From Candidatus Omnitrophota bacterium (GTDB taxonomy: Bacteria > Omnitrophota > Gorgyraeia > 2-02-FULL-51-18), in contig CAMDWQ010000009.1 in NCBI GenBank assembly GCA_945877765.1, positions 7,409-71,408 of the forward strand: a stretch of DNA of 64,000 bases. Reading direction: 5' to 3'. Under the pieces are notes generated by a model, which was not told the origin of the DNA, did no database searches, and worked only from the letters and a program-made list of their open reading frames with translations. How positions within the stretch are numbered: the stretch's first letter is position 1; each line of letters starts with the position of its first letter. The translations under genes were made by a program, and so were the position numbers. Below are positions 4,477 to 57,000 of this stretch, one piece after another.

Positions 4477-5313
4477 CTATTTTTTTCTTTCCAGTACAAA
4501 ATCGGCTATTTCGGACAAAATCACACCCTTTTTACCTAATAACTTAAGCTCATTTTTGGCGCGCCGGTGAATTCCAGCCGCCTCCTCTCGGGCTTGTGTC
4601 AAACCCAGCAATTCAGCATACCCCTCCTCATCGAGGATGTCATCCACAATTTGGAACAAAAGTCCAAGTGCCTGTCCGTAGCGAAAAATCGAGCGGACCT
4701 GATCCGCATTTCCACCACCCAGGTAAACTCCCACCCGAGCCGACGCGGCAATCAAAGCACCTGATTTGTGAATATTAATGTATTCCATGATCGCAAGATT
4801 GGTCTTTTTATCTTGGTATTCAATATCCACCGCCTGACCACCCACCATCCCCGCAGAACCCACCGCCTCGGCGATAAAGCGTATCGTTTCAAGCTGTCTA
4901 TTTGAAAAATCCTTCGGTGTATTTTTCACCGGCTCACTCAAAATCCTAAACGCCAGCGTCAAAAGCGCATCCCCCGCCAAAACCGCCGTATCTTCGCCAA
5001 ACTTCACATGACAAGTCGGCTTCCCCCGCCTGAGTGCATCATCATCCATGCAGGGCAAATCATCATGAATGAGCGAATAACAATGAATGAGCTCCAGCGC
5101 ACAGGCTGCCGGCAACACGCGCCGCACATCCCCACCCACCGCCTCACAAGCCGCCAACGTCAAAACCGGCCGCACGCGCTTGCCCCCCGACATCACCGCA
5201 TACAGCATCGCCTCATGCAGTTTGCGTGCATGTGTCCCCGGCTTTGGAAGATATCCCAAAAGGGCATTATCAATTTTAATTGCTTGTTTTTTAAAATATA
5301 TCTCAATAGCCAT
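4477..5313 (-). CDS. ispA: farnesyl/geranyl diphosphate synthase (polyprenyl synthetase)
   Basis: First aspartate-rich motif LIHDDLPCMDDDALRRGKPT and second motif FQIVDDILD. Start placed at MAIEIYFKK; the 4 codons upstream in the ORF-track call run into a GC-rich repeat. The order xseB-ispA-dxs matches the classic arrangement. Confidence 0.85.
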   Translation of the reverse strand: MAIEIYFKKQAIKIDNALLGYLPKPGTHARKLHEAMLYAVMSGGKRVRPVLTLAACEAVGGDVRRVLPAACALELIHCYSLIHDDLPCMDDDALRRGKPTCHVKFGEDTAVLAGDALLTLAFRILSEPVKNTPKDFSNRQLETIRFIAEAVGSAGMVGGQAVDIEYQDKKTNLAIMEYINIHKSGALIAASARVGVYLGGGNADQVRSIFRYGQALGLLFQIVDDILDEEGYAELLGLTQAREEAAGIHRRAKNELKLLGKKGVILSEIADFVLERKK

Positions 5314-5380
5314 TAGTAGCCACAAATCCCGTTGTTTTCACCACTACCATCCCTCTCCCAAAAAAATGGCGCACTATGCG

Positions 5381-5475
5381 TTGTGTCCGCCGGGTGGCGC
5401 CGGAGGGGAGGCCTCCGCTGCGCGGAGTGAAAATTTACACGAGCACAGCGGAGTCCCGCAGGTGACAGGCCCCGG
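5381..5475. repeat. GC-rich structured repeat element, copy A, in the leader of ispA
   Basis: GGGTGGCGCCGGAGGGGAGGCCTCCGCTGCGCGGAGTGAAAATTTACACGAGCACAGCGGAGTCCCGCAGGTGACAGGCCC is about 95 % identical to 20125..20200. It contains several GC hairpins (CTCCGC/GCGGAG, GCGG/CCGC). Confidence 0.5.
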
Positions 5476-5496
5476 CGAACACTATACACACCGCAC

Positions 5497-5757
5497 TTAT
5501 TTATTCTTTTTCTTCGCCTTCCCGCCCTCATCTTCAAACACTTCCGTCTTAAACTTCCCCGCATTCGTCTTCACCAACACTTCAACTCTCTTCTGCGCCT
5601 CCGACAACCTCTTCGTACAAATATCCGCCATTTTGACGCCTTCTTCATACTGTTTGAGCGCCTGTTCCAACGACAATTCCCCGCTCTCCAGATTCTGCAC
5701 AATCGCTTCCAATTTTTTCAGCGCCGCTTCAAATTCCACTTCCTTAATTTCACTCAT
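5497..5757 (-). CDS. xseB: exodeoxyribonuclease VII small subunit
   Basis: 86 aa helical protein FEAALKKLEAIVQNLESGELSLEQALKQYEEG typical of XseB. It overlaps the xseA stop by 4 nt. Confidence 0.85.
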   Translation of the reverse strand: MSEIKEVEFEAALKKLEAIVQNLESGELSLEQALKQYEEGVKMADICTKRLSEAQKRVEVLVKTNAGKFKTEVFEDEGGKAKKKNK

Positions 5758-7096: not shown

Positions 7097-7342
7097 TTAC
7101 TTGGCTAAAAGCTTTTCATAAAGAGCTTCGGGGGAAATATCAGCTCCGTTAGGCCAGCAAATCGTCCCTCCCTCAATGCGGGCCGACTTAAAATAATGCT
7201 TGTCTTTGAGTGGTATAAAAACAGTACCCTTATCGAGATATCTTGAAAAGTCGATATCACCCTTCACTCCATCGTCAAATGTAATATGATAAATATAATC
7301 GTCCACATATTTGATGGAGAGGACATCATTTAATTTCCACAT
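7097..7342 (-). CDS. DUF2442-family small protein
   Basis: 81 aa; the second gene of the widespread DUF4160/DUF2442 two-gene cassette. Confidence 0.55.
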
Positions 7343-7350
7343 AAGTCACC

Positions 7351-7611
7351 TCATTCCAAAGGAGTTATTTTTTTGATCTCTTTGCATGCCTTAGCCAGTT
7401 CCCAATCCTCTGCCAGCTCTGTTTGATGAAGATCGATCCATTCACGAATCAATTTTAACGCCGTACGGGAACCTAAATCGCCCAGTAGAATATTCCCGCG
7501 AAAATCCATTACCGCTTTCTTACCGCCAAATTCCGCATGAAAATGCGGCGGATTATGGTCATCATAAAACATTCGAATAACAACGCCAAAAAAGCGTGAT
7601 ATTTCAGGCAT
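7351..7611 (-). CDS. DUF4160-family small protein
   Basis: 86 aa with a DHNPPHFH motif; it forms a pair with the downstream DUF2442 gene. Confidence 0.55.
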   Translation of the reverse strand: MPEISRFFGVVIRMFYDDHNPPHFHAEFGGKKAVMDFRGNILLGDLGSRTALKLIREWIDLHQTELAEDWELAKACKEIKKITPLE

Positions 7612-7647
7612 TTTGACCCCTAAAATTTAAATTTAGCCACGTTCAAA

Positions 7648-7675
7648 GTATATCATCCTACCTAAATATTGACAA
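7648..7675 (-). promoter_or_regulatory. sigma70-like promoter candidate for the DUF4160/DUF2442 pair
   Basis: On the minus strand: TTGTCA, a 16-nt spacer, then TATACT, about 35 nt upstream of the ATG at 7611. Confidence 0.35.
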
Positions 7676-7877
7676 AAAAATCTGGTGGTGGCTATAGTGG
7701 TGTGAATTGTAATTAGAAGTGCAACAGGGTTGGGGTGTGGGTTTGGAAGTAGGTTGGAAGAAAAAAGCCCCATAGATCTTAAAGTACTGTTACTTTGTAG
7801 GTGTCGAACAAACAAAGAACAGGAGAGATCTATGGAGCAGGTTAAAGTGGTCAAGTCTTTCCCTAGCCACATCCACA

Positions 7878-7912
7878 TGATCCCCGATTAGAAAATTCGG
7901 GGATGACATTGA
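7878..7912. repeat. REP/MITE-like hairpin element, single unit
   Basis: catGATCCCCGAttagaaaatTCGGGGATgacat; an 8-bp perfect stem ATCCCCGA/TCGGGGAT. It belongs to the same family as the elements at 17865, 22436, 39944, 44018 and 46037. Confidence 0.7.
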
Positions 7913-7915
7913 ATA

Positions 7916-8707
7916 TTATTCTAATTTCCTATGCACTCTTTCAATCTTCACCGCTTTACCCGTGCTTTCGTCGACGGTGATGAGGGCACCGGAGAGACGC
8001 GCGTCATTTTGGGCGACTACTTTTTTGCCGCCGATTTGTGTCAGAAAACGGTCCATGATTTGATCTTTGTCAGCACCGATCACCGAGTCATAGGGTCCTG
8101 TCATTCCTAAATCGGTAAGGCAGGCAGTGCCTTTAGCAGAAACGCGCTCATCGGCTGTTTGCACATGCGTATGAGTGCCAACAACCGCCGCAACGCGTCC
8201 GTCCAGATACCAGGAAATCGCCATCTTTTCGCTGGTAGCCTCGGCATGCATATCCACCAGGATGATCCGAGCCCCCCGAGTCTGAACTTTTAGGATTTCT
8301 TCATCGGCAGAAAAAAATGGGGACAAAAAATGATAGCGCATGAAAACTTGGCCGGCGACATGGATCACACCAATCTTTACGCCCTTACACTCCACGACAG
8401 TGGAGCCGACACCGGGCAAGCCTTTGGGGAAATTGGCGGGTCGGACTAGCCGCGGGTCCGTCTGCATCAATTCTTCCACTTCTTTTCGCTTATCAAACGC
8501 GTGATCGCCCATCGTCAAGACGTCACAACCGGATTGAAAAAGGTCTTTGGCAACTCTGGCACTGACACCAGCACCGTCGGTGGAATTTTCAGCATTACAG
8601 ACAACAAAATCCACTTCGCCGCTTCTTTTCATCGCCGGAACAAAGCGTTCAATCGCTTTACGTCCTGGATCTCCGTACGTATCACCGATCATTAGAATTT
8701 TTAGCAT
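7916..8707 (-). CDS. ymdB: YmdB-like metallophosphoesterase (TIGR00282 family, 2',3'-cyclic-nucleotide phosphodiesterase-like)
   Basis: MLKILMIGDTYGDPG...VVCNAEN...GDHAFDKR...VDMHAE...GTHTHVQTAD are the calcineurin-fold metal-ligand motifs of YmdB. It lies downstream of rny as in Bacillus, here separated from it by inserted genes. Confidence 0.75.
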   Translation of the reverse strand: MLKILMIGDTYGDPGRKAIERFVPAMKRSGEVDFVVCNAENSTDGAGVSARVAKDLFQSGCDVLTMGDHAFDKRKEVEELMQTDPRLVRPANFPKGLPGVGSTVVECKGVKIGVIHVAGQVFMRYHFLSPFFSADEEILKVQTRGARIILVDMHAEATSEKMAISWYLDGRVAAVVGTHTHVQTADERVSAKGTACLTDLGMTGPYDSVIGADKDQIMDRFLTQIGGKKVVAQNDARLSGALITVDESTGKAVKIERVHRKLE

Positions 8708-8712
8708 TATCT

Positions 8713-9006
8713 TTAAGCCGATTTAAATACTTTACGCCCAAATTCAGCCTGGATTCGCTCGGCGATGAAAATTTTAATTAATGACTGATACGGCACATCT
8801 CTTTTATTTGCCAAAAGCTTGACTTCTTCCAGCATCGACTCTGTAAGCCTCAAAGAAATCGTTTTTACCGAGGGTTTAAGGTTGGGGAAAACCACTCTCT
8901 TGGCTTTCGACCAATCCAAGTAATCGGTCGAATCATGAGTCGCCCAAAAATTCCGCTCCTCATCTTCACTCTTAAACTTAGGGATTCTCTTTTTTATAAA
9001 GCTCAT
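8713..9006 (-). CDS. brnA: BrnA-family antitoxin (CopG/RHH-like)
   Basis: 97 aa; KAKRVVFPNLKPSVKTISLRLTESMLEEVKLLANKRDVPYQSLIKIFIAERI resembles the BrnA antitoxin family. It overlaps the upstream BrnT gene by 29 nt. Confidence 0.6.
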   Translation of the reverse strand: MSFIKKRIPKFKSEDEERNFWATHDSTDYLDWSKAKRVVFPNLKPSVKTISLRLTESMLEEVKLLANKRDVPYQSLIKIFIAERIQAEFGRKVFKSA

Positions 9007-9283
9007 ATACCCGCCTTTCTTTAGCGCTCATGGGTCGCGCAGAAATAACCCGAATTGAATTTTTTCTAACCGTAAATATTAGGTAAAGCTCTTTGCTCTC
9101 ATCTGTCCTTCCAAGCGCAAAGTACCTCATTTCCTGCTCCGAATGAATTTCATCCCACCCAATCCGCAAAGGACTGTTAAATAATACCTGCTCGCATTCC
9201 TGAGGACTAACGCGGTGCTTCTTCCAATTCTTCCCCGCGTTATGCTCATCCCAATCAAAACCTGTGTATTTGGATAAATCCAA
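8978..9283 (-). CDS. brnT: BrnT-family ribonuclease toxin (DUF497)
   Basis: 101 aa; FDWDEHNAGKNWKKHRVSPQECEQV...RYFALGRTDESKELYLIFTVRKNSIRVISARPMSAKERRVYE matches the BrnT signature (FEWDxxKxxxNxxKHGVSFEEA...IRIISARKAtkkErkiYE). Confidence 0.75.
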   Translation of the reverse strand: MDLSKYTGFDWDEHNAGKNWKKHRVSPQECEQVLFNSPLRIGWDEIHSEQEMRYFALGRTDESKELYLIFTVRKNSIRVISARPMSAKERRVYELYKKENP

Positions 9284-14821: not shown

Positions 14822-15889
14822 TCAAAAATTCAAAAAAAGATCCTTCAAGTCCGGCTTTTTCTTCAAAAAACCTACCTGATACGCGTTCTGGGCCTGAGCC
14901 AAAACAGACTCCCGCATCTGATCGGTGGTAAATACCACCCGCTTCCATGCCATATCCAAAATAGTGGGGTCCATTTTTCTGCGCATGAATTTTTCAAATT
15001 GATTATTGAATAATTCTTTTGACTCTTTAGGATGTCCATTAATCCAGTCCGTCAGCTCGCGATGTGCCCTCAAGAAATTTCGTACTTGCTCCGGGTGCTG
15101 ATCTAAAAATTTTTTCCTTACAATGACAACCGTTGTTGCATACCGGCCTTTGGGCCACAACGACGACTCTTCCATGAATATTTTTGTCCCGCCTTGCTTC
15201 AAATAAATAGAAACCCACGGTTCTACGCTCCACGAAGCATCAATTTCCTTTTTAGAAAAAAGACTCAGCTGATCCGCGTTCGCCACCGGCAGCACATCCA
15301 CGTCGCCCCCTTTTTCACGAATTTTTAAATTTTGTGAAAGAAGCCACGAGCGCAATGCCACATCCTGCGTGTTCCCAAATTGAGGAGACGTTATTTTTTT
15401 CCCATGAAAATCCTGCGCCAATTGAATCCCCGCATCCTCCCGCACGACCAACGCTGCGCCGCCGCTGGCCGCTCCAGCAAGAATGCGAACCACCTCGCCG
15501 TTGGATTTCACATAACCATTCACCGCGGGGCTGGGCCCAACATACGCAATATCCAAGTGATTGGCAAACATCGCCTCAATCACCGAGGGTCCCGCATTAA
15601 ACACCGTCCACTCCACCGCGCCCTTCCCTAATTTTTGATCCCAAAATCCATTCGCCTGCCCCACCATCGCCTGCGCATGCGTGATATTGGAAAAAAACCC
15701 CGCCCGAATCTTTTCCGTCTTCTCCGCCGCCACTATCCCTGCGCCTATAAAACTGAAAGCGCTCGGAATTAGCACAAAGAATATTATTAGCACGCGGCGG
15801 GTGGCGCGGAGGGTGGGCGCCCATTGACCCGCAGGCCAAAGGAAGGCCGAGGACGCAATGGGCTCCCGCAGCGACAGGCCCTGCCGCAT
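14822..15889 (-). CDS. ABC transporter substrate-binding protein, NitT/TauT (SsuA/TauA/NMT1-like) family
   Basis: Periplasmic-binding-protein fold with a TM/signal segment VLIIFFVLIPSAFSFIGAGIVAA. The exact start is uncertain because the 5' end of the ORF runs through a GC-rich repeat (15785..15895); it may use a non-ATG start further downstream. Confidence 0.7.
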   Translation of the reverse strand: MRQGLSLREPIASSAFLWPAGQWAPTLRATRRVLIIFFVLIPSAFSFIGAGIVAAEKTEKIRAGFFSNITHAQAMVGQANGFWDQKLGKGAVEWTVFNAGPSVIEAMFANHLDIAYVGPSPAVNGYVKSNGEVVRILAGAASGGAALVVREDAGIQLAQDFHGKKITSPQFGNTQDVALRSWLLSQNLKIREKGGDVDVLPVANADQLSLFSKKEIDASWSVEPWVSIYLKQGGTKIFMEESSLWPKGRYATTVVIVRKKFLDQHPEQVRNFLRAHRELTDWINGHPKESKELFNNQFEKFMRRKMDPTILDMAWKRVVFTTDQMRESVLAQAQNAYQVGFLKKKPDLKDLFLNF

Positions 15890-15895
15890 CACCTT
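15785..15895. repeat. GC-rich structured element, divergent copy C, in the leader of the SBP gene
   Basis: GCGGGTGGCGCGGAGGGTGGGCGCCC...GGGCTCCCGCAGCGACAGGCCCTG shares the GGGTGGCGC-GGAGGG core and the CCCGCAG..GACAGGCCC tail with copies A and B. Confidence 0.3.
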
Positions 15896-15906
15896 CACTA
15901 TATTCT

Positions 15907-16701: not shown

Positions 16702-17847
16702 TTATATATTGAAATACGGCTCCAGACTTAAGTATCTTTCCCACGAGTCAGGAAACAGGACGACCACCTTTTTCCCCGCGCCCAGCATTTTGGCAATCTT
16801 CACTGCCCCAACACAAGCGGCTCCGCAAGAAATTCCCGCAAAAACCCCTTCTTCGCGCGAAAGCCTTTTGGCCATCTGGTAGGCTTCTTGATCCCCGACA
16901 GGAATAATTTCATCAATTAGGCTGCGATCCAAAACATCAGGGATAAACCCTGCGCCGATTCCCTGGATCATGTGCGGTCCGGGTTTTCCGCCGGATAATA
17001 CACTGGATGTTTTCGGCTCTACGGCGATAATGCGGGTCTTTGGATTGTGCTCTTTAAGCACCTTTCCCACACCCGTAATAGTCCCTCCGGTTCCGACGCC
17101 CGCAACAAACGCGTCCACTTGTCCGTCCATGTCGCGCAAAATTTCTTTAGCGGTTGTTTTTCGGTGCATCGCCGGATTATCCGGATTCTTAAACTGCTGA
17201 GGCATAAACGCGTCTTTTATCGTGGACACGATTTCCCGAGCACGTTCAACAGCGCCGGCCATTCCTTCTTTGGCTGACGTGAGCATCACTTCCGCACCAA
17301 AGCTTTCAAGAATTTGAATTCTCTCCTGGCTCATCCCGTCCGGCATCACTAAAATTACTTTATAACCTTTAACAGCACCCACAATCGCTAAGCCAATACC
17401 AGTGTTGCCGCTGGTAGGCTCAATGATCGTGGAACCCGGTTTTAAAAGACCTTTTTTCTCAGCCTGTTCCACCATGTTGAGCGCAATTCTGTCTTTGACA
17501 CTGGCGCCGGGATTAAACATTTCAAGCTTGGCATAAACACTGGCAGAATCTTTTTCGATGATTTTCGAAAGACGCACCATCGGTGTCTCTCCGATAAGAT
17601 CAAGAACGCTTTGGGCAATCGCGCCGCCGCCCATATAAAAAACAAATTCGACACGGTCCCCTGCCTGGATCTTTGTCGAATCGTATTCTAGTTTTTGCGG
17701 GATATTTTCATTGATCTCAACCGTGACAAGCTCCGGACGGACTTTCCATTTGAGCAAAATATCCGACACCGACAACCCTTTTTGAATTTGTTGTATTTTT
17801 CCGTTTAATTGGATTTGGATCATTTCTTTGGCTTCAGTGTTAGACAA
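16702..17847 (-). CDS. fusion protein: N-terminal ThiS/MoaD-like ubiquitin-fold domain ending in GGG, joined in-frame to cysteine synthase (CysK/CysM, PLP)
   Basis: Residues 9-74, MIQIQLNGKIQQIQKGLSVSDILLKWKVRPELVTVEINENIPQKLEYDSTKIQAGDRVEFVFYMGGG, form a ThiS-type domain with a terminal Gly-Gly. They are followed directly by a CysK core with the PLP lysine (MFNPGASVKDRIA), TSGNTG and the GTGGT loop. Confidence 0.8.
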   Translation of the reverse strand: MSNTEAKEMIQIQLNGKIQQIQKGLSVSDILLKWKVRPELVTVEINENIPQKLEYDSTKIQAGDRVEFVFYMGGGAIAQSVLDLIGETPMVRLSKIIEKDSASVYAKLEMFNPGASVKDRIALNMVEQAEKKGLLKPGSTIIEPTSGNTGIGLAIVGAVKGYKVILVMPDGMSQERIQILESFGAEVMLTSAKEGMAGAVERAREIVSTIKDAFMPQQFKNPDNPAMHRKTTAKEILRDMDGQVDAFVAGVGTGGTITGVGKVLKEHNPKTRIIAVEPKTSSVLSGGKPGPHMIQGIGAGFIPDVLDRSLIDEIIPVGDQEAYQMAKRLSREEGVFAGISCGAACVGAVKIAKMLGAGKKVVVLFPDSWERYLSLEPYFNI

Positions 17848-17864
17848 TTTACTCCCTCCCCATT

Positions 17865-17942
17865 GTCATTCCCGAGTGCTTTAATCGGGAATCAAACTTG
17901 GATTAGACATGATCCCCGAAAAAAAAATTCGGGGATGACATT
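17865..17942. repeat. REP/MITE-like hairpin elements, two units (TTCCCGA/TCGGGAA type and CCCCGA/TCGGGG type)
   Basis: GTCATTCCCGAgtgctttaATCGGGAATCA ... catGATCCCCGAaaaaaaaatTCGGGGATGACAtt. Confidence 0.7.
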
Positions 17943-17950
17943 TTAAGCTT

Positions 17951-18355
17951 TTAAACGATTTCTATTTCTTCCTCTATTATTTTTTCGTCTTTAATCTTAA
18001 ATGAACGTAAAATTGGTTTGTTTATATCCGACAGTGACACGATCAGATAACTCACATCAGGATAAAATGCCAGACGCACATCTTTCTGAGAAGGAGCCGC
18101 CTCACTTGCCACATGCGAATGAAAAATGCCCGTCATCTCTATTCCCATCTCTCTCATTTTCTTAAGAACTAAAAGCTGCTCTTTGGGGTCCATAAAATAG
18201 CTGATGCTTGATTCATCTAGATTTCTCATTGGGAAAAATTTAGAAGTAATTCTTTTTTTTAAATCCCCTCCAAGAATGCCGCAAGCCTCATTGGGGAACC
18301 CTGCTTTGGCATGCGCGATCATCGCCCCATAAATGGATTTAGAGAGGTGGATCAT
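17951..18355 (-). CDS. JAMM/MPN+ metalloprotease (Mec+/QbsD-like)
   Basis: 134 aa with E...HSHVASEAAPSQKDV (the JAMM motif HxHx7Sx2D). It sits next to the ThiS-CysK and CysO-like genes. Confidence 0.8.
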   Translation of the reverse strand: MIHLSKSIYGAMIAHAKAGFPNEACGILGGDLKKRITSKFFPMRNLDESSISYFMDPKEQLLVLKKMREMGIEMTGIFHSHVASEAAPSQKDVRLAFYPDVSYLIVSLSDINKPILRSFKIKDEKIIEEEIEIV

Positions 18356-20061: not shown

Positions 20062-20205
20062 TGCTCCCGCAACGGGTGGCGCCGGAGTTGCGCATATAAC
20101 GATAGGACATTGCTCCCGCAACGGGTGGCGCCGGAGGGGAGGCCTCCGCTGCGCGGAATGAAGAATTACATGAGCACAGCGGAGTCCCGCAGGTGACAGG
20201 CCCTG
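20062..20205. repeat. GC-rich structured repeat element, copy B, with an internal 24-nt tandem duplication; leader of cysH
   Basis: GCTCCCGCAACGGGTGGCGCCGGAG occurs twice, then GGGAGGCCTCCGCTGCGCGGAATGAAGAATTACATGAGCACAGCGGAGTCCCGCAGGTGACAGGCCC. This is near-identical to 5396..5470. Confidence 0.5.
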
Positions 20206-20222
20206 TTGCGAACACATCGCAC

Positions 20223-21503
20223 CTATATAGCACTCACATGCTCCACATTTTTCAAAATAATCCCGCCCCCGCGCACATCATGATCGCTGACCAGCACAAA
20301 TCGTCCCGTTTCCGGAATTTCATCAAACGTATCAAACGCAATCGGCTTCTTGGTCGAAAGAATGATCTCCGCCACTTCGTTTTTAGCCACCTCATGCGAA
20401 TTTTTTGAGATTTCTTCCAAGGTTGAGGAATTAATCACTTTTAAAATCGCCTCGACCACGCACTCGACTTCCTGAGTCGCGACTTTCAAAATATACTTTC
20501 CGCCTTTTTCCAAGTGCTTATTCCCCATCCAAAAAATATTCGCCGAAAACCGGTCAGACACCAAGGTCTTGTTGGATTTTAAGCATCCAATCTCCCCGCG
20601 CTCGACAAAAATTTGATCTTCCATGGTTAGACCTATCGACTCCCCAGCAACTACCGTCATGGGCATCGGCGCATTCCATTTTTCAATGGTTTTTACTTTG
20701 GTCGATTTTCCCGACGGCATGAAGATAATCTCATCCCCGATAGAGATCGTGCCCGATTCCAGACGTCCGGCAATAATACGCCGCTTATCAAATTTGTACA
20801 CATCCTGCACCGGAAAACGCGCCGCCAGCTTCGAGCGGTCATCATGTGTGGCAAAATTCTCCAACACTCCCAGGATCGATTCCCCCTGATACCAAGGCAT
20901 GTTGACGCTTTTTTGCACGACATTGTCCCCGTGATAAGCTGAGATCGGGATAAAAGTCCTCGGTTTCACGTTGATCGATGCCAAGTATTTCGTGTAAGTC
21001 GTCACCACGTCGTTAAAAACTTTCTCGGAATACTTCACTAGATCCATCTTATTGACCACAATAGCGATCTGCTTGATGCCTAAAAGCGAAAGAATATACG
21101 CGTGTCGTTGCGTCTGCTCCTGAATCCCTTCCTCCGCGTCAATCATGAGAAATGCCACATCGGCGTTGGAAGCACCCGAAATCATATTCTTTAAAAATTC
21201 CTTATGACCCGGCGCATCAATAACAACATAATTTCTTTTTTTGGTCCTAAAAAACATCTGTGCCACGTCAATCGTAATCCCTTGGTCGCGCTCTTCCTCG
21301 AGGCCGTCCAAAAGAAAAGCAAATTCAAACACTTTTCCCTGGTCTTCGCAGACTTTTTTGACATGAGCAATTTTATTGTCCGGGATGAAACCGGTCTCGC
21401 TTAGGAGGCGTCCCACCAGTGTCGACTTGCCGTGGTCCACATGGCCCACCATCACAAACTTTAATGTTTCCGTTGAGGTTAAATTTAAATCTAGAGTTTC
21501 CAT
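20223..21503 (-). CDS. cysN: sulfate adenylyltransferase large subunit (GTPase)
   Basis: G1 [10 protein letters not shown]3 DAPGH and NKMD, plus EF-Tu-like beta-barrel domains. The start overlaps the cysD stop. Confidence 0.85.
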
Positions 21504-22303: not shown

Positions 22304-22435
22304 TTGAAGCTCTCGCCTTCCTTTAAATAGTAGTAAAATGGTGTTATACAGTACAACTAAATACTACCATACATTACTTAATTGGTCAAATATAAAAATA
22401 AAAAAAGACCATGAGTGATTAGTGACCCATTGACT

Positions 22436-22506
22436 GTCATCCCCGAAATCTTTAATCGGGGATCATGTATAGGTTTGATTCCCGATTAAAACTCTCGGGA
22501 ATGACG
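22436..22506. repeat. REP/MITE-like hairpin elements, two units
   Basis: GTCATCCCCGAaatctttaATCGGGGATCATg tataggtt TGATTCCCGAttaaaactcTCGGGAATGACgtg, inside a 430-bp AT-rich intergenic region. Confidence 0.7.
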
Positions 22507-22730
22507 TGATATTTTGATTTAATTCTGCTAAGTATTTTAAATAGTTACTTAGTGGGGGATTATGTATAAAATAAGTCGATTTTTAACTATTAAATCCCAA
22601 TTTATGCTATTTTAAAAGTTAATAGTGGGTTAAAATTCCCATACTAAGTTTACTTAATAACTATTATATATATTAAAAAATATGCAATTTTTTCAATTAT
22701 TAGGGTTGAATCGATTTTTCTATGGCTATT

Positions 22731-30159: not shown

Positions 30160-30396
30160 TTAACCATAAAATTCTTGTGGTTCCAAACCGAATCTTTCGC
30201 GAATAGCGCGCGTATAATTCCGATCGTACTCGCGCTTCATTGGAAGTGGGTAAGTTTGTTGTACGCCTGATTTGTCATAACCCACCAGTTGGAAAATATG
30301 AGATCCAGAACTGCCATCAGAAAGAATTACAATTTTGTGCTCCTTAAGAAGTTTTCTTAAGGCGGGAAGTTTTAGGGGTTTATCTTGCCTTGGCAA
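30160..30396 (-). CDS. HicA-like (YcfA family) toxin, putative
   Basis: 78 aa; GSSGSHIFQL...IRERFGL resembles the HicA G-S-H-h-h motif and C-terminal helix. Confidence 0.4.
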   Translation of the reverse strand: MPRQDKPLKLPALRKLLKEHKIVILSDGSSGSHIFQLVGYDKSGVQQTYPLPMKREYDRNYTRAIRERFGLEPQEFYG

Positions 30397-30748
30397 ATCG
30401 GCGGAATGAACCTAAATCATAAATAGGCGAGGATTTTAAAAGTTCGCGCAATTCATTGGTTTTGCCACTGATTAATTCGGCTACAAATTCAGTGTTGATC
30501 TTCTCGGCAACCATTTTCCAAAAACGCGCAGGGGCTGGATGATTAATAGCCGTTAGCATATTATTTTGAATAGCAAATTTTAACTGATGCTCAGTTAAGG
30601 CTTTCATCTCATCCGTTGCGCTTTTTCTGGATACTCCAACTCCCACTATATCTAGAGTTAAATTATGAGACACCCATTTCTTTCCATCCTTATATAAAGC
30701 AATGGTTAGTTTATTCTTAAAGTGGGTTTTTGAGAGAGTAGATTTCAT
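30380..30748 (-). CDS. HicB-like antitoxin, putative
   Basis: 122 aa with an N-terminal RNase-H-like HicB-type segment (LTIALYKDGKKWVSHNLTLDIVGVG). It overlaps the HicA-like gene by 17 nt. Confidence 0.35.
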   Translation of the reverse strand: MKSTLSKTHFKNKLTIALYKDGKKWVSHNLTLDIVGVGVSRKSATDEMKALTEHQLKFAIQNNMLTAINHPAPARFWKMVAEKINTEFVAELISGKTNELRELLKSSPIYDLGSFRRFAKAR

Positions 30749-30912
30749 ATTTGAAATTATGCCATACAGGAGCTGTTAACACAAGGGGGTGGAATTCATG
30801 ACGGGGCTGGCGCAGTGACGACGCGAAGGCTATCCATGCCGAAGCGAAGTACCGACTATACGGATAGTCGGCCAGGACCCGTTGCGACACATTACGCCAC
30901 CACACCTAAGCA

Positions 30913-31413
30913 CTAAGGTTTTTCGCTAAACAAATCCCCTTGGCTGCCTATGCGGACAATATCTTCGATTTTGATTTTAAGAAAAATAACACGGTTGGAA
31001 ATTTCTAACTCAAAATGTTTATGCCGCTTTCCTGTCTTCATTCCCTCAATGACGCGGTCTGCGGAAATTTGGATTAATTTTTTTTCAAATCCTTTGAGCA
31101 AAGTATCAAAAGCGGCTCCGCTCTCAATGAGCTCGGCAGATCCACTCATCCGGTAGCCTTCTAGATTTTCGACATCCATAAAAGCCATTGAAGCGCGCGG
31201 ATTAACACGCAGATTATCAACCGTCCTGGCAATCGCGTGATCCGCTAGATAAAAGTATTCGCCTTCAATTTTATAAAGAATCTTCGGTGCCGCGTGAGGC
31301 TCGCACTTTTTATCGGCAGTGGCGATGCTTAGGTAATAGCGGTTTCTTAATAATGAGATTATTTTATCAGGGATGATCATAGGACTTTTTTTCAAATTTA
31401 GAAAAAATTTCAT
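30913..31413 (-). CDS. PNPOx-like FMN-binding split-barrel protein
   Basis: 166 aa; YYLSIATADKKCEPHAAPKILYKIEGEYFYLADHA fits the pyridoxamine-5'-phosphate-oxidase-like superfamily. Confidence 0.45.
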   Translation of the reverse strand: MKFFLNLKKSPMIIPDKIISLLRNRYYLSIATADKKCEPHAAPKILYKIEGEYFYLADHAIARTVDNLRVNPRASMAFMDVENLEGYRMSGSAELIESGAAFDTLLKGFEKKLIQISADRVIEGMKTGKRHKHFELEISNRVIFLKIKIEDIVRIGSQGDLFSEKP

Positions 31414-39886: not shown

Positions 39887-39943
39887 TAGCCTATTCCTTG
39901 ATTTGACCTCTCTAGGGCTAGACTAACACAAACCAACGCCAAC

Positions 39944-40014
39944 GTCATTCCCGAAAGTATTTATCGGGAATCAAACCTTAACATGATCCCCGATAAAAAA
40001 TTTCGGGGATGACA
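39944..40014. repeat. REP/MITE-like hairpin elements, two units
   Basis: GTCATTCCCGAaagtatttATCGGGAATCA aaccttaa CATGATCCCCGAtaaaaaattTCGGGGATGACA. Confidence 0.7.
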
Positions 40015-40058
40015 AGCGGTGTTATTCGTTCAGGAATGCTAAAGGGTTACGAAATTTC

Positions 40059-43921: not shown

Positions 43922-44017
43922 TCAAATTTCTCCGCGTGACTCATCATGCCTTATCATAGATTATCATAATTTATCATAGATTACTATAGCTTGTGATTCC
44001 GTATAAAAAGTTAGTAC

Positions 44018-44049
44018 GATCCCCGATTAGAAATTTCGGGGATGACATG
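44018..44049. repeat. REP/MITE-like hairpin element, single unit
   Basis: cGATCCCCGAttagaaatTTCGGGGATGACAt, near-identical to the unit at 7878. Confidence 0.7.
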
Positions 44050-44086
44050 GTGGGAGGGTATTAAAGGATTCTATAAATAAATTTAT

Positions 44087-46036: not shown

Positions 46037-46296
46037 CGTCATTCCCGAACACCACGCAGTGTCATCCCCGAAATTATTTATCGGGGATCATACATCACCC
46101 CACAGTGTCATCCCCGAAATTGTTTATCGGGGATCATACATCACCCCCACAGTGTCATCCCCGAAATTGTTTATCGGGGATCATACGCAGATTTGATTCC
46201 CGATTAAAACTCTCGGGAATGACGTAGGTGTTAGAGATCATACCTTAGTTTGATTCCCGATTAAAGCTCTCGGGAATGACGTTGTGGAATGACATT
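46037..46296. repeat. tandem array of REP/MITE-like hairpin units (about 6 units, both subtypes)
   Basis: Three near-identical about 46-nt units, acagtGTCATCCCCGAaattgtttATCGGGGATCATacatcaccc, flanked by TTCCCGA/TCGGGAA-type units. The 'spacers' are only about 11 nt and identical to one another. Confidence 0.75.
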
Positions 46297-51089: not shown

Positions 51090-54000
51090 TTAGGCGGCTT
51101 GCTCGGCCATGCGGGCGGTCATGTTGTAGGCACTGACGATATTAGCCACATTCAAGCAGTGAATGGCCAGTCGTTGGACGATGTCGGGGGTGAGTCCCAC
51201 GCCTTGCACGAAATTCAAGAATTCGACTGGGGCCGCGGCGGAGACGTCAGACCCCAGGGCCTGGAAAATTTCTCTTAACCGTTGCTGGTTACGTGGATGC
51301 TTTATTCCCTCTTTTCCTATTTCCGCTTCCGCGATTAATCCATGAATCAAAGCATCGAAATTGAGAAAACCTCTTTGGGTGGGGACCTGAATAATCAGAT
51401 GGAGCCTGTCTTGGCTAAGAATACGAATATTTTTAGGGTCCATCGCCTCCAACGAAGCGCTCTTCATCGATTTAATATTTGATGGAGCTTTTTTCAAAAT
51501 AAATGTCTGTGAAGGATACAGCGCCTCTGCGCGGTCCATAATTTTTTTCCTATTTTTTGGCGTGATTCCAACGATCTGAAAATAGACGTTGAATTTAGTT
51601 GCCTTGTGCATGGCGTTCACGAGCGCGTGGGTAAAAAGCTCATCCGTGGGTAATTTTTTTTGACTCATAAGTCCTTTGAGATTGATAATCAAAAATTTAG
51701 ACTCAGGCGTGATTAGAGATTCGGTGAGACTCCGGACTTTGTTGGTTTGCTCGGCGAGTTTGTTCTTTAGCTCCAGCTGAGAAAGAAGCTCGTCTTGGGA
51801 GAGCATCAACGTCGCGTCTATATTTTGACCTTTACGATTTCTTGTGATGATGGCTTTGTAATTCCTCAAGACAACCTCCATAGAGTCTTCAAAATAAAGA
51901 CGGAGAATCTTGGCATCATGGTCCAAAGTGAATCGCAGGGTCTGGTCTCCTATCACGAGGCTTCCTTCCACAAAATCACGGCGAGCACTAATAATGGCTT
52001 GGGCGGCGAAAACGAGCCTGTCGTGACGTTCAATGGTGCCGTTGGCATAAATGGTTGGTGCGAATTGCATGGTCGCCTTTAGCGCCCCCAAATGACGGGT
52101 AGGAGCTTCGGATGCCAACCGTGCCGCGTCTCGATATTCAACATACGATGATGTGCCTATTCCCCTGCCTTCAAATGTTAAAGGTATGCTGTGATATTCC
52201 CAAAATGAGAAATCCTTTACCTCTTTATTTACAAACGTGCCACGGGGATGATACTCCTCTATTTCTGGAAAAGCGGTATCTAGGACTTCCATCTTCTGCA
52301 AATGTCTCTCCTGGCGGTTGAACTGAATTCTGATGACTATCGGGAGTCTATAATTCCTCTTATTCCCATGGTCTAAAGCATTTCTTAACATCTCTTTGAG
52401 GATATAAGTTGCCCCGAAAGCGGAGTGGTCACCCGGGTTTTCTTTTATCAAAATATCTTCTATTGCCCTTGCAAGATAATAGAAGCGCGAAGACTCCGCA
52501 TCGTGCCCACTAAGCCTAGAGCGATCTTCTATGTGAGAAAGATCAATCCATAGCGGCTGCTCATTTTTAATGGCATCACTTAAAGCCTCTTTATCGACCG
52601 GCGATGACAGATCTATTTTTATTAATTTCGTATTTCTTGCCACATATTCTAATAGTGCCTTAGAGGACGTCTGTTCTTCCCTCTTTTTTTTGTCATACTC
52701 CACTAGCCTTGTTTGAATACTAAAATTACTTTTTGTCAAAAGTTTATCCCGCACGATGATTGGAAGCTGTACGCTGTCATCAGGCACTACAAAACGTAGA
52801 TTAACCTTACCCCCTTCAATCTTCGTAAAAAGCATTGTGATTTGTTCTAAAATAGGGGTCTTTCCCCGGATTGCGATTGTATCTTTTGGGGTGGGGTGAT
52901 TTTCAAGAAGTATCCGTGAAACTTTATTCCAATCAGGACTTTCTGGTCCATTGGAAGTCTGAACCACAATGTAATTACCAGCCGCATTGATCTTGTCCAC
53001 ACGGACCTGCACCAAGTTGTGACTTTCTTGATCATAGACCCATATTAACTCGCCTTCATTGGCAGGCATCCAAATCGGTGTGGTTGCCAACCGGGCACCA
53101 TTCGGATCCCCGCTGAGGCTTTGCTCATCGGTTGCTGCAACACGTGACCCTTGGCCTGCGGGGCTCTCTCGGGATAGATGTTCTAGCGCAACAGCGACGT
53201 CGTTCGTCACAACAACAGCTGCTGTTGGGTATAACTTAAGAAAGTTTTTAAGTAATGTTGCTCTTTCGTCGTCATCCGTAATTCGGTTGATCCTAGCCAA
53301 CTCTTGATTAGCTGCGGAAGAAACATCTGCCAAATCAGGGTAGCTAGGATACAGATCAATGCTGGTGATCGTACCTCCCAAATTTAGAAGTGTGGGCAAT
53401 AGCGGTGAATTTCTTCCTATGGATCCAACCTGAGCAGTTGACTTGCTAAGATTCGCAGATAGAGCCGCCTTTAATGCGTAGTGATACAACATTTTAAACA
53501 ATGCGTGTCCTTTATAATCATCCGATCTTGCTAGTGAGGCATTGCCCAATATTCTCTGCTGTTCATCCATAATGATTATTATCCCCACAAAATATGCTAT
53601 CAACTTTCCTTTATCATCACGAATCACAAAACTAATAGAACTAGGCCTACTAGCCAATTCTGCAATGCGTAAGGGTTCCATTCCCGTCGGCGGAAGACTC
53701 TGGATTTCTTCTGCTTTGAGAATATTTTTTCCCCCTACTCTCTCTAGGACCAAATCATGCTTTTCTCCATCTTTTACTATGCTAAATCGGTGAGGGAGTA
53801 GCCCTGTGAATGCATTGTCTATCAGAGATTGATCGTTCTGGAAACATATCATCTCAATCTCATTGACGTATTTCCTGAATTTATCACCGTAACCTGCATA
53901 CCTATCGTTATCTGCATACTTATAAAGAGCATCATTATCCGCTAAAAACCTTTCCATAATATTCAAGGCTGCATCTACATTCGTATTACCGATAGGGTAT

Positions 54001-57000
54001 CTAGCCACCAGACGGGTTGAAGAGCTACGATCAGGCAGAGCCATGATATTTCTCTGAATACTTAGATCAGCTATAACCCCATTGTCTTGGCTAATAAATA
54101 AACTCACCCCAAGATTTCTTTTAATTTTGCGTGCTATGGATACTATTCTTCCCGCCGGGTTCATGTCTGATATAGATTGATGATCGAAATTAACCAATCT
54201 GGCTGTTTCTTCCTCTGAGATTGCCAACCGCGCGCCGACCAAATCGTGTTGAGCGTCTTCCCCGTTTGTCCGAATCTTTTTGAGACTGGTCAGAAACAAA
54301 AATCTCTTCTCTGGTGGGATCGTACGCATCACTGATTCTGCGATAGACAACACTCTGGCTCGATAGTCACTATCCATGTCATTGAGCGCTAACAAAAGAC
54401 TATCCAAAACCACGGGTGTCCGATATTTAGCCAAATCATGAAGGCGTTGCCTCACCAATTCGGTCACGTGCAATTCATCCGGCCCGTGAGCTAATTCCTT
54501 TAATAGGTACAGCAATTCCCGTGGCTCAACATTCGATCTGAGCGAGTTGGACAGCCGCATCGACCGTGGTAATACTTGAATTAGCTGATAGTCTTCCAGG
54601 CTCCGGCCATTGGGGCTAGTTCGCATGCTTGAGTCGATTGTCCTTTGATTTATAAAAAAATCCTTGTTTTGGCCAAAGCCATAATTAGACTCATCCGCAT
54701 GGATCGTTTGCCAGGCTAGCAGGTATCCGCCCGTAAGAGGAATACTCTCATTCACCATTCGAAGCCTATCCCTCGTATCTTTCACCGGTCCCATGTCAGG
54801 CACGATCACCAGAGACGGCCTAGTCTCTTCCGAAGCATAAGACAGACCTCCGGGCTTGAGAAAATCAACAACCTCCACCGAAAACTGGGCCGGTGGAATT
54901 CCAAGCTCGACAGCCGCCCGATCAAGAAGTGCGGCCTTTTCCCGCTCCTCTGGAAGCAAAAGAAATCTTATGCTCTTTTCCGAAAGCGCAAGACCCAAAG
55001 CCAGTAAGCCAGCACCCTTGCCGCCGCCAAGAATTAGCACTTCTTTCGTTGTTGCTTCTGGTAATTTGAGAATAGTTTCCAATGCTTCTCCTCTTGAAAA
55101 GTTGGCATCGTCATCAAATTCGAATATTTCTAATTTGTCCACCCCAACCACTTTCCGAATTTTTTCAATATATTCTTTGCCAATCACATCTATAGGCTTC
55201 ATCACTTCTGCGACTTTTTTTAGATACTCAGCCATCATTGATTCACGTAATTCGTTGAGTCTCGCATCAAGACTTTCAATCCTCTGGACTATTTTTTTAG
55301 CTTTTGTGAGCACTTCAGCTTCATTTTGATATCTTTCAAGCTCAGGGATAGAATTTGCAATTTGAACTCCCTCTTCACGTGCCGCCGTAACCTGCTGGCC
55401 AAAAAGCAAAATATTTTGATTGGATACGTCACGAAGAGAGATCTGCTGCCAGCTTGAAAGATTACGTAACGCATCATTTTGTGAGGAAGTCATTCTTTCT
55501 AGATGACGGCTTGTAAGATGACTCACGAGCATGATGACTTCTGCTTTTACATCCTCCCATTGGGCTGTTTTAAACCAGTAAGCACGGCCAACTTTATAAT
55601 CTAAATGCCACTCAATCGTATCTAATAAATAAGCAAGAAAAACACTTGCTCTTAATGGAACTTCAAGCTCGTGGTTGACCGGTAATCCTCTGTCTTCAAC
55701 TGGAATTAAATAGTCAGCGTTCTTGACGGCAATAAAGTCACCGAATGCCGTTGGTTCATTCGCATAATAACGAATGGAAAAACCATTTCTCATAAAAGGA
55801 TCTGGGATTGACGTAGAAGTAACATAAGCGCCTTCAGGCTTAAGCATTTGCTTAATTGAGGCTACCCATATATCTAAAATCAAAAATTTCATCTCAACTA
55901 AAGGCAGTCCCGCGAAAGAAGGCAAGGTTTCATCTATAACACTATTGGACATAATCAAATCAAACGATCCAGTCATATCACTTAGCGAGGATTGAATAAA
56001 ATTTACTTTTAAGATAAGTGCTTTTTTTAAATCATCGGCACCCGCCCAAACTGAAAGTTCATTTCTCATGCCTTCAAACATCCCATCAGACAGGTCGATC
56101 ACCGTCAATGATTGCATCTTCGGTAATGCGATCAATATAGAAATGATTTCTTTAGCATTTTTACCAGGTCCTATAAGAAGAAGATCTCCCGTTTGGATAG
56201 GATGACGATAGGGCTCCTTAAGATCCGAAAGGAGGTTGGTAATCTGAAGCGCAAATGTATTTTCAAGGCTTTCTTCTTCCGCCAACCGCGCGCCACCCTT
56301 ATTCCGAATACTGGCTTGCTCACTCGACAAATCAAGATCCGCGCGAACAAAAAATTTATCGACAAGTGCTTCTACGACTAAATTTTCAGATTCAGAAAAC
56401 ACACCCCACTGGCTTCCACCAACAAAAGACTGTAAGAAAGGAAGTGATTTTGGAAACCAGACCGTTGCCTCTCCTGATGGGCTAACGATCATCTCAGGTG
56501 CTCCGCTATAGGAAATCTCTGTTATATCAACGGTTGATGGGTAAAGATTTCCATTGGGGTGAAAATGCATCCCAAATACCAACGGGTTATTCTTGGCCGG
56601 TTCGAAGAGGCAACCAATAAAATCACTTTCACTTCTAATCACCGTGCCCTTCCACTCGCCTCTTAGATTGAAATAAAAGTTGGTTTGAGCGGATGTTGCT
56701 GTTTCCGTTTCATCAACCATATCCAAAGCCCACGATTGTGCATTGAAATAAAATGAGCTTCTTCGCTCCAGAGGAAGGTGATTCACAGCATCACCAAGTC
56801 CGTAATGCCTAAACAAATCTCCGGGTGTGGTTTCGATCCCTGGGTTTTCAGGTATTAGATCTAATCCAAAAAATTGCTCCTGAGAGATACTGATCTTTTC
56901 TAACATAGTAGGTATTGAGTATTTCATTATGAGCTCATCTCTATAATTCTTAAAATATCCATTACGAAGATTGAAAGTAAAAATACGCGCACTCTTGTCA

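Follow-up and report, generated by a model that had tools for sequence, protein, structure and literature searches.

An interspersed palindromic repeat between genes of an Omnitrophota bacterium, with a core shared by at least two phyla

Introduction

The 64,000-nt stretch of a Candidatus Omnitrophota genome analysed here (hereafter the window) contains a GC-rich element that recurs upstream of ispA, cysH and the gene of a sulfonate-type substrate-binding protein (SBP, SsuA). Two of these genes belong to a sulfur assimilation cluster, and the initial annotation, made from the sequence alone, left two readings side by side: a cis-regulatory RNA, possibly of the sulfur regulon, or a GC-rich mobile repeat that preferentially lands in leaders. 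The question raised by this locus is therefore whether the element controls particular genes or is an insertion that lies beside them, and what kind of element it would be in the latter case.

Results

Copies of the element in the window

A covariance model run with all filters off detected only three strong copies in the 64 kb, all of them on the minus strand and, as first described, in the same orientation relative to the downstream gene. Copy A (5378..5487, 81.8 bits) and copy B (20109..20218, 76.6 bits) are joined in the repeat family D4 and share 95 % identity over 82 nt (5391-5472 versus 20122-20203); a 35-mer of their core occurs exactly twice in the window, against 0 expected (100 shuffles), which bears out the near identity originally noticed. 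The diverged third copy reported before the SBP gene is equally real: copy C (15785..15896, 59.9 bits, E = 1.5e-13) belongs to a subfamily with a different terminal hairpin (P2), a close relative of which is present in locus L129, yet it is clearly homologous and aligns with the other copies via two conserved boxes. In copy A, the hairpin spans 5482-5383 and comprises the 5′ conserved box GGGGCCTGTCACCTGCGGGA (5473-5454), P2 (5453-5413) and the 3′ conserved box GCCTCCCCTCCGGCGCCACCC (5412-5392). The family core can be written as GGG(U)CCUGUC-R-CUGCGGGA ... variable hairpin ... CCCUCC(G)GCGCCACCC. Since a stem flanking the core belongs to the element, the repeat unit measures about 100-110 nt, rather than the ~80 nt first proposed.

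A candidate fourth copy, degenerate and also on the minus strand (~30789..30905), was picked up by a half-site scan and direct reading. It keeps GCAACGGGTCCTG on its 5′ side and GCGCCAGCCCC on its 3′ side and is similar to copy B in the 5′ flank; its score (9 bits, E = 2.1) is not significant alone. Copy B is further marked by an exact 26-nt duplicate of its 3′ end (CTCCGGCGCCACCCGTTGCGGGAGCA, repeat family D18, minus strand). The two units (20062..20087 and 20111-20136) lie 49 nt apart start to start with 23 nt between them, so that the duplication described earlier is genuine but is neither 24 nt long nor strictly tandem.

The window also contains a second, unrelated repeat family, made of ~45-nt hairpin units in both orientations (TGTCATCCCCGAAATTATTTATCGGGGATCAT; variant GTCATTCCCGA...TCGGGAATC), which resembles the Neisseria dRS3/NIME repeats in form only. 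These units are found at 7875-7921, 17854-17953, 22425-22519, 39933-40027 and 44014-44060, and an array of about five of them occupies 46050-46282. Small toxin-antitoxin-like pairs (DUF4160/DUF2442 and BrnT/CopG; 7097-7878 and 8713-9283, minus strand) lie upstream of xseA, the domain calls being precomputed Pfam matches on the corresponding public contigs. A giant ORF of at least 4302 aa (51090-63998, minus strand) runs off the end of the window.

Position between genes, reading frames and translation signals

All four window copies, including the decayed candidate, are intercistronic, each being located between two co-directional minus-strand genes and beginning 0-10 nt after the upstream stop codon. 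Copy A separates xseB (stop codon 5497-5499) from ispA (start 5313), which is followed by dxs; copy B directly follows the cysN stop codon (TAG, 20223-20225) and precedes cysH; copy C lies between an ssuC-like permease gene (stop codon 15907-15909) and ssuA. The junctions are abrupt, the stop codon TAA being followed by GTGCGG at copy A and TAG by GTGCGA at copy B. The candidate fourth copy lies between a PNPOx-like gene (30913-31413) and an ORF of 122 aa (30380-30748). This location right after an upstream stop codon identifies the copies as intercistronic inserts and not, as had been assumed, as 5′ leaders of transcription units. The supposed preference for leaders is not demonstrated: the copies lie in short spacers after stop codons, and these spacers are perhaps the sole tolerated sites, in which case no preference would be involved.

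The sulfur cluster around copies B and C (ssu-type ABC transporter, cysH, cysN) also includes an ORF (16702-17847, minus strand) in which a ThiS-like sulfur-carrier domain (aa 12-75) is joined to CysK (aa 83-376), either by a true fusion or because the ORF listing merged two adjacent genes.

Several reading frames run through the element. An ORF at 5313-5564 crosses copy A. The match to the CysH family covers a 287-aa ORF only from residue 55 onwards, and that to the SBP (SsuA) family a 368-aa ORF only from about residue 59-74. The spurious ORFs and N-terminal extensions suspected at the outset are thus confirmed, and the ORFs crossing the window copies are artefacts. The same phenomenon is visible in public protein sets, where four proteins (P0001-P0004) read through the element. 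P0001 reads through that of copy C, and the paralogous signal-peptide ORFs P0002 and P0003 contain its translation in frame; it has also given SsuA and a TPR protein false N-terminal extensions. Such ORFs, which we located at L127 (2677-3111), L128 (8257-9036) and L129 (569-1165), are probably mis-annotations.

The 3′ strand of the outer stem of copy B contains GGGAG; a second GGGAG, contributed by the 26-nt duplicate and unpaired, lies 8 nt before the probable ATG of cysH (20055-20053). For ssuA, the probable GTG start codon would sit in the 3′ strand of the outer stem of copy C, and the start codon downstream of the element in L129 is preceded by a GGAG located in the element's 3′ flank. This suggests that cysH and ssuA have their ribosome-binding region or start codon in element-derived sequence and that the operons accommodated the insertions. 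Downstream of copy A (5313-5372, minus strand), GGGAGAGGG is immediately followed by an ATG. This opens an ORF of 15 codons whose TGA comes just after the start codon of ispA, possibly a short coupling ORF made by the insertion.

One imperfect hairpin with covarying stems

All variants of the family fit one long imperfect hairpin. From the outside inwards, it is composed of a variable outer stem, a GGGG:CCCC helix, a 3-nt bulge UCC (GCC in the window type), the pairs UG:CA and a U.C mismatch, followed by a C-R-C:G-Y-G helix, a pyrimidine-rich 3x3 loop UGC/UCC, a GGGA:UCCC helix, a second 3-nt bulge (GAC or GCC) and P2. This terminal hairpin is free in both sequence and length and tolerates large insertions or extra hairpins, as in L131b. 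The window copies are predicted to form hairpins of -46 to -58 kcal/mol, the fold of copy A reaching -58.4 kcal/mol (z = -5.5).

In an alignment of 38 copies, standard pairs make up 82 % of the cells, and sliding the partners by 1-3 columns lowers this share to 46-60 %. Many copies share descent, so that independent events are fewer than cells. None of 500 shuffles reached the observed covariation score, and 29 copies gave the same picture. The base of P2 is paired in 100 % of cases, with compensatory changes at all four pairs. In the outer stem, 26 copies have G-C and 10 have C-G at the innermost of the variable pairs. Three versions of the C-R-C:G-Y-G helix were observed, namely CGC:GCG, CAC:GUG (three type III copies) and CGU:ACG (the copy of L167). 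Helices that are invariant carry no evidence for or against structure. Even copies A and B, which differ at four positions, owe two of these differences to one compensatory change from G-C to A-U. The bulges and mismatches stay constant while the stems show compensatory changes, although the 3x3 loop is closed to GGA:UCC in L143b. The alignment for compensatory changes proposed in the initial annotation thus shows that the stems covary, and the fold is maintained by compensatory change and is under selection.

Read on the mRNA-sense, C-rich strand, 49 non-Watson-Crick cells of the core are A.C and one is G.U. An A.C on this strand corresponds to G.U or G.T on the other one, which by itself would favour the opposite, G-rich strand as the one that folds. 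Predicted folding energies, too, lean towards the antisense strand, with a mean advantage of 3.2 kcal/mol (23 copies versus 13), possibly as an effect of base composition. The G.U pairs of P2, however, are almost evenly divided (12 on the sense strand versus 15 on the antisense strand, in copies that are not independent), and U.G pairs on the mRNA-sense strand occur in the outer stems of the window copies, so that both strands remain candidates.

Two additional pairings were considered and rejected. In a pseudoknot, box 1 (GGGUCC) would pair with GGACCC, the segment that follows P2; this would need a zero-length loop, is broken in L127, L128, L144, L158b and L160, and is missing from type III copies. 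A local hairpin formed by boxes 1 and 2 is not conserved in window-type or type III copies.

Members of the family in other genomes

A pattern of two boxes (CTGCGGGA N30-60 GCGCCACCC) turned out to be too unspecific, around 22 or more specified bases being needed; in a genome collection, the matches listed for it were only chance matches in high-GC genomes. In JGI metagenomes, a strict three-box pattern gave no matches, and a relaxed one recovered the family, with 37 loci corresponding to 24 true members and 13 chance matches. Translated frames of the element, used as a protein query, led via four proteins to three further loci in ENA. The covariance model, applied to the same loci, found more copies, 38-41 in total; as a control of its specificity, the best score was at most 21 bits in 0.78 Mb of unrelated genomes pre-selected for two of the boxes. 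The core boxes are absent from PLSDB plasmids and IMG/VR viral contigs, and a full-text literature search for the literal box sequences found no paper.

Further copies are present in contigs of the same metagenome sample set as the window, and other Omnitrophota carry the family, since the GroEL gene adjoining the copy of L136 is annotated as Omnitrophota. Many copies are carried by an uncultured gammaproteobacterium of about 40 % GC, with 14 contigs bearing near-identical copies in the metagenome Ga0164242. Its assignment is based on FtsH, YidC, GuaB/GuaA and DnaN of the E. coli type, whose best named relatives are Gammaproteobacteria and Legionellaceae. Contigs of 66-73 % GC are further carriers, and overall the same core is found across at least two phyla and from 37 to 73 % GC.

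Outside the window, the neighbours of the element are groEL, tig, guaB/guaA, dnaN, murA, yidC, ftsH and an lpxL-like gene. In the window lineage, all six interpretable copies are sense to the upstream gene, those of L127 and L128, antisense inside paralogous predicted ORFs, being ambiguous. Outside this lineage, single copies are sense to the nearest gene about seven times versus six times antisense, according to heuristic ORF calls. The gammaproteobacterial loci additionally contain six convergent pairs, each combining a type I copy with one of type II or III, an arrangement that is found nowhere in the window. At one end of the contig of L143 (3740-4255), the native ftsH promoter flank around such an element pair is duplicated in inverted orientation over at least 77 nt; the pair of this locus may not be genuine sequence but a fold-back artefact of the assembly at a palindromic repeat.

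With housekeeping genes as neighbours in either orientation, the link to sulfur metabolism rests on one gene cluster. Copies of random orientation with no covariation had been expected of a selfish repeat; the orientation is indeed random outside the window lineage, but the stems do covary. Taken together, this indicates that the fold matters to the element itself and not to a particular gene.

Empty and filled orthologous sites

The spacer between xseB and ispA measures 183 nt in the window. It measures 6, 6 and 4 nt in relatives whose IspA is 73-74 % identical, 1 nt in one at 71 % IspA identity and 38 nt in one at 68 %; the element is absent from this junction in all five closest relatives sampled (spacers of 1-38 nt), and the 3′ part of the 38-nt spacer still aligns with the window sequence just upstream of ispA. 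The closest relatives being without the element, copy A was gained by insertion and is not an ancestral regulator of ispA. Only one of the six relatives holds a member of the family at this junction: in this genome (IspA 70 % identical), the 122-nt spacer contains a diverged copy that keeps the outer stem, GGGUCCUGUCG, GGGA:UCCC and CGCCACCC. A target-site duplication is not definable here, the relatives being too diverged for an informative comparison of filled and empty xseB-ispA sites.

A similar situation is encountered in the gammaproteobacterial carrier, which has at least 500 nt upstream of ftsH, holding two copies of the element, whereas in a relative with an 89 % identical FtsH the spacer between rlmE (ftsJ) and ftsH is 107 nt long and no copy occurs in 9 kb. 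The filled/empty polymorphism between related genomes that is expected of miniature inverted-repeat elements (MITEs) is thus observed in both the Omnitrophota and the gammaproteobacterial lineage.

The exact IspA protein of the window is also encoded by ENA metagenome contigs and by the NCBI metagenome-assembled genome (MAG) GCA_947444795.1, its closest named homologues being those of Candidatus Omnitrophota/Omnitrophica (57-64 % identity). In this MAG, the contig CANFBX010000020.1 (L178) begins inside copy A, at GGCGCCACCCGGCGG (positions 1-24), which indicates that the assembly broke at the repeat.

Searches for known RNA families, terminators and mobility genes

No Rfam family matches the window at the gathering threshold, and E-value scans of copies A and C and of those in L137 and L160 returned only generic miRNA/snoRNA hairpin models, far below the gathering score. 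The Rfam search, suggested in the initial annotation as a means to identify a known riboswitch class, thus matches none. A simple terminator scan called no site at any copy; seven consecutive U follow copy A at about 20 nt from its stem, and copies B and C have no U-run.

Transposases, RAYTs and recombinases were found neither among the ORFs near the copies nor among ten other ORFs of the window, and we saw no autonomous parent element and no copy with a gene in place of P2. In a comparison by hand, we could fit the element to none of the HDV-like, hammerhead, hairpin and twister ribozymes, nor to a k-turn, the base of SRP/4.5S RNA or tRNA-like acceptor ends. A likeness of the 5′ arm (GGGGTCTGACGCT...) to the Tn3 inverted repeat is a coincidence, given that the arms differ and that there is neither a 5-bp target-site duplication nor a TAAG domain.

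Discussion

A probable mobile palindromic repeat

The element is a multi-copy insertion present in at least two phyla and tied to no gene class. We consider it probable, at roughly 60 %, that it belongs to the mobile DNA repeats of the REP/MITE/Correia-ERIC kind, being about 100-110 bp long, non-autonomous and spread horizontally. The mobile alternative of the initial annotation is supported on account of the presence or absence of the element at orthologous sites in two phyla, its copy number, the decayed copy and the assembly breaks, whereas its cis-regulatory alternative conflicts with the lack of any Rfam match, the xseB-ispA junctions that are empty in five relatives, the unrelated neighbours and the occurrence of both orientations. 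The element is not a gene-specific sensor.

By analogy with REP-RAYT systems, the ends of IS200/IS605 and attC-IntI, the constant asymmetric bulges and mismatches would most likely form, once one strand has folded into the long imperfect hairpin, a recognition surface for an enzyme acting in trans, which would move or copy the folded element. New copies would land in short spacers just 3′ of stop codons; in the window genome they would then be transcribed within operon mRNAs, where the very stable hairpin may uncouple the neighbouring genes, probably as a passive stabiliser or a processing site. At cysH and ssuA, the operons would have accommodated the insertions through start signals supplied by the element itself. 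Some observations sit less easily with a mobile repeat. Neither a transposase nor an autonomous parent was found among the ORFs checked, and no target-site duplication was definable. The complementary flanks of the core are unusual for classical MITEs, the six interpretable copies of the window lineage are uniformly sense, and a core that is identical across phyla and from 37 to 73 % GC is unusual for REPs and could point to a cellular function.

Alternative readings

Alternatively, the element could be an intercistronic RNA adopted by its hosts, with a core bound or cut by a host factor such as RNase III, RNase E, Rho or a ribosomal component; it would then set the relative expression or 3′-end stability of operon genes, mobility being just its route of spread. 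Such a role would fit the position of the six sense copies directly after stop codons, the stability of the hairpins (z down to -5.5), the invariance of the core regardless of genome GC, the Shine-Dalgarno and start-codon signals within the element, and C-rich boxes with CCUCC that could pair with Shine-Dalgarno sequences. We nevertheless consider it unlikely, the orientation being random in the other carriers, a decayed copy being tolerated and the closest relatives lacking the element at the same junction; moreover, the A.C mismatches fall on the mRNA-sense strand, and the terminator signature is absent at the copies. Ordinary intrinsic terminators or attenuators that are alike by chance would account for GC-rich hairpins after stop codons and for the U-run of copy A, but this reading is highly improbable: besides the negative terminator scan and the missing U-runs of copies B and C, convergence cannot explain 95 % identity over 82 nt or the sharing of 20-nt boxes between phyla. 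A sulfur-regulon riboswitch or other cis-regulatory RNA, suggested by a structured and conserved core and by the two of three intact copies that stand beside cysH and ssuA, is the least credible reading and is largely refuted by the census of contexts. Copy A precedes ispA and the fourth copy follows a PNPOx-like gene; elsewhere the element adjoins unrelated genes, from groEL and tig to ftsH, in either orientation and not, as expected of a riboswitch, one gene class in sense; conservation at orthologous sites is likewise lacking, and 95 % identical copies within one genome are unfit for independent ancient leaders.

The core might instead be a catalytic or self-processing RNA or DNA, for instance a new self-cleaving ribozyme carried by a retroelement-like or rolling-circle-like repeat. 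Conserved junctions combined with covarying stems and a free terminal hairpin are the usual signature of small ribozymes and would explain why unpaired nucleotides are invariant, and the element is multi-copy, occurs in more than one phylum and matches no known family. This appears very unlikely to us, as we could fit neither a pseudoknot nor a known catalytic core, saw no reverse transcriptase or Rep gene nearby, and find the evidence on the folding strand divided; moreover, most of the invariant nucleotides are pyrimidine mismatches of a rod-like fold, more reminiscent of a site bound by a protein. A bolder version of the mobile reading would make the conserved asymmetric core the active site, or the recognition module, of an undescribed class of mobile elements that crosses phyla, moved by a hairpin-specific enzyme or by its own catalytic RNA or DNA; this is at present a tentative proposal with the odds clearly against it.

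Implications

Small palindromic repeats are usually private to one genus. A core that is retained base for base across at least two phyla and 37-73 % GC, within covarying stems, argues for horizontal spread combined with a strong constraint exerted by a partner, and finding this partner would define either a new mobilisation system or a new hairpin-binding host factor. If the idea of a mobile class that crosses phyla is correct, the element would represent a new family of structured nucleic acids and not another lineage-specific REP. Omnitrophota have been reported to depend on host cells, and a transfer of the element between host-dependent Omnitrophota and Gammaproteobacteria partners is conceivable. 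The insertions separate genes that are otherwise tightly coupled, for instance xseB and ispA, with 1-6 nt between them in most relatives; cysH and ssuA, with start signals that now appear to lie in the element, offer a compact example of a selfish insertion built into operon expression. On the practical side, the element produces false ORFs and N-terminal extensions, already present in public protein sets, and interrupts the assembly of MAGs; gene calling in Omnitrophota and other uncultured lineages would benefit from a model of it.

Comparison with known systems

The integron attC sites are imperfect hairpins in which extrahelical bases are conserved and the terminal structure varies; they are located after stop codons and mostly in one orientation, a description that also applies to the element. 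However, the R″ (RYYYAAC) and R′ (GTTRRRY) boxes of attC are absent, the outer stem differs from copy to copy (only copy B has GCAAC...GTTGC), the flanking genes are housekeeping genes and not cassettes, and the internal sequence is conserved, whereas only the structure is conserved in attC sites. Rickettsia palindromic elements (RPE) can lie in frame within ORFs, as the element does in the predicted proteins P0002 and P0003, and Neisseria REP2 supplies a ribosome-binding site to the downstream gene, comparable to the translation signals of copy B and L129; neither shows sequence similarity to the element, and their taxonomic range is different.

The resemblance to IS200/IS605 and the small non-autonomous derivatives of such elements, including PATEs, lies in the subterminal imperfect hairpins, which are recognised as single-stranded DNA, with an expected strand bias (PMC6006769). 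The ends of IS200/IS605 are nevertheless two separate hairpins, whereas the element is one rod; no TnpA/TnpB gene was found nearby, the copies have no conserved flanking target tetranucleotide, and the HEARO model of Rfam does not match the element.

Correia elements (CREE) are processed by RNase III. Like these and the other MITEs of the ERIC, RUP and BOX types, which are 100-150 bp long, the element forms a long hairpin, lies between genes, is co-transcribed and can contribute or alter expression signals (PMC3184786). Those MITEs, in contrast, have terminal inverted repeats matching a transposase family, with target-site duplications (TA for Correia), and are confined to a genus or family. 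The element spans phyla, neither a parent IS nor a target-site duplication was found for it, the flanks of its core are complementary to each other and are not direct repeats, and its conserved part is the asymmetric interior and not the termini.

With REPs and REPINs, finally, the element shares the form of intergenic, GC-rich, imperfect palindromes in many copies per genome, perhaps the inverted doublets, for which the convergent pairs of the gammaproteobacterial carrier are candidates, and, by analogy, a folded single strand with conserved unpaired bases that governs function (PMC3116915, PMC3733652). REPs are defined as palindromes of 20-40 nt with a GTAG or CGTC tag (PMC3733652), whereas the element is 80-110 nt long and neither tag is present at the foot of the hairpin on either strand of the consensus. 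REP families are also typically lineage-specific and tied to their own RAYT, while the element has a freely variable terminal hairpin, no RAYT in the ORFs scanned, which come from 64 kb and short contigs, and a core that is identical across phyla. It is best filed with the interspersed palindromic repeats, among which it is set apart by this cross-phylum core, matching no family in the libraries searched.
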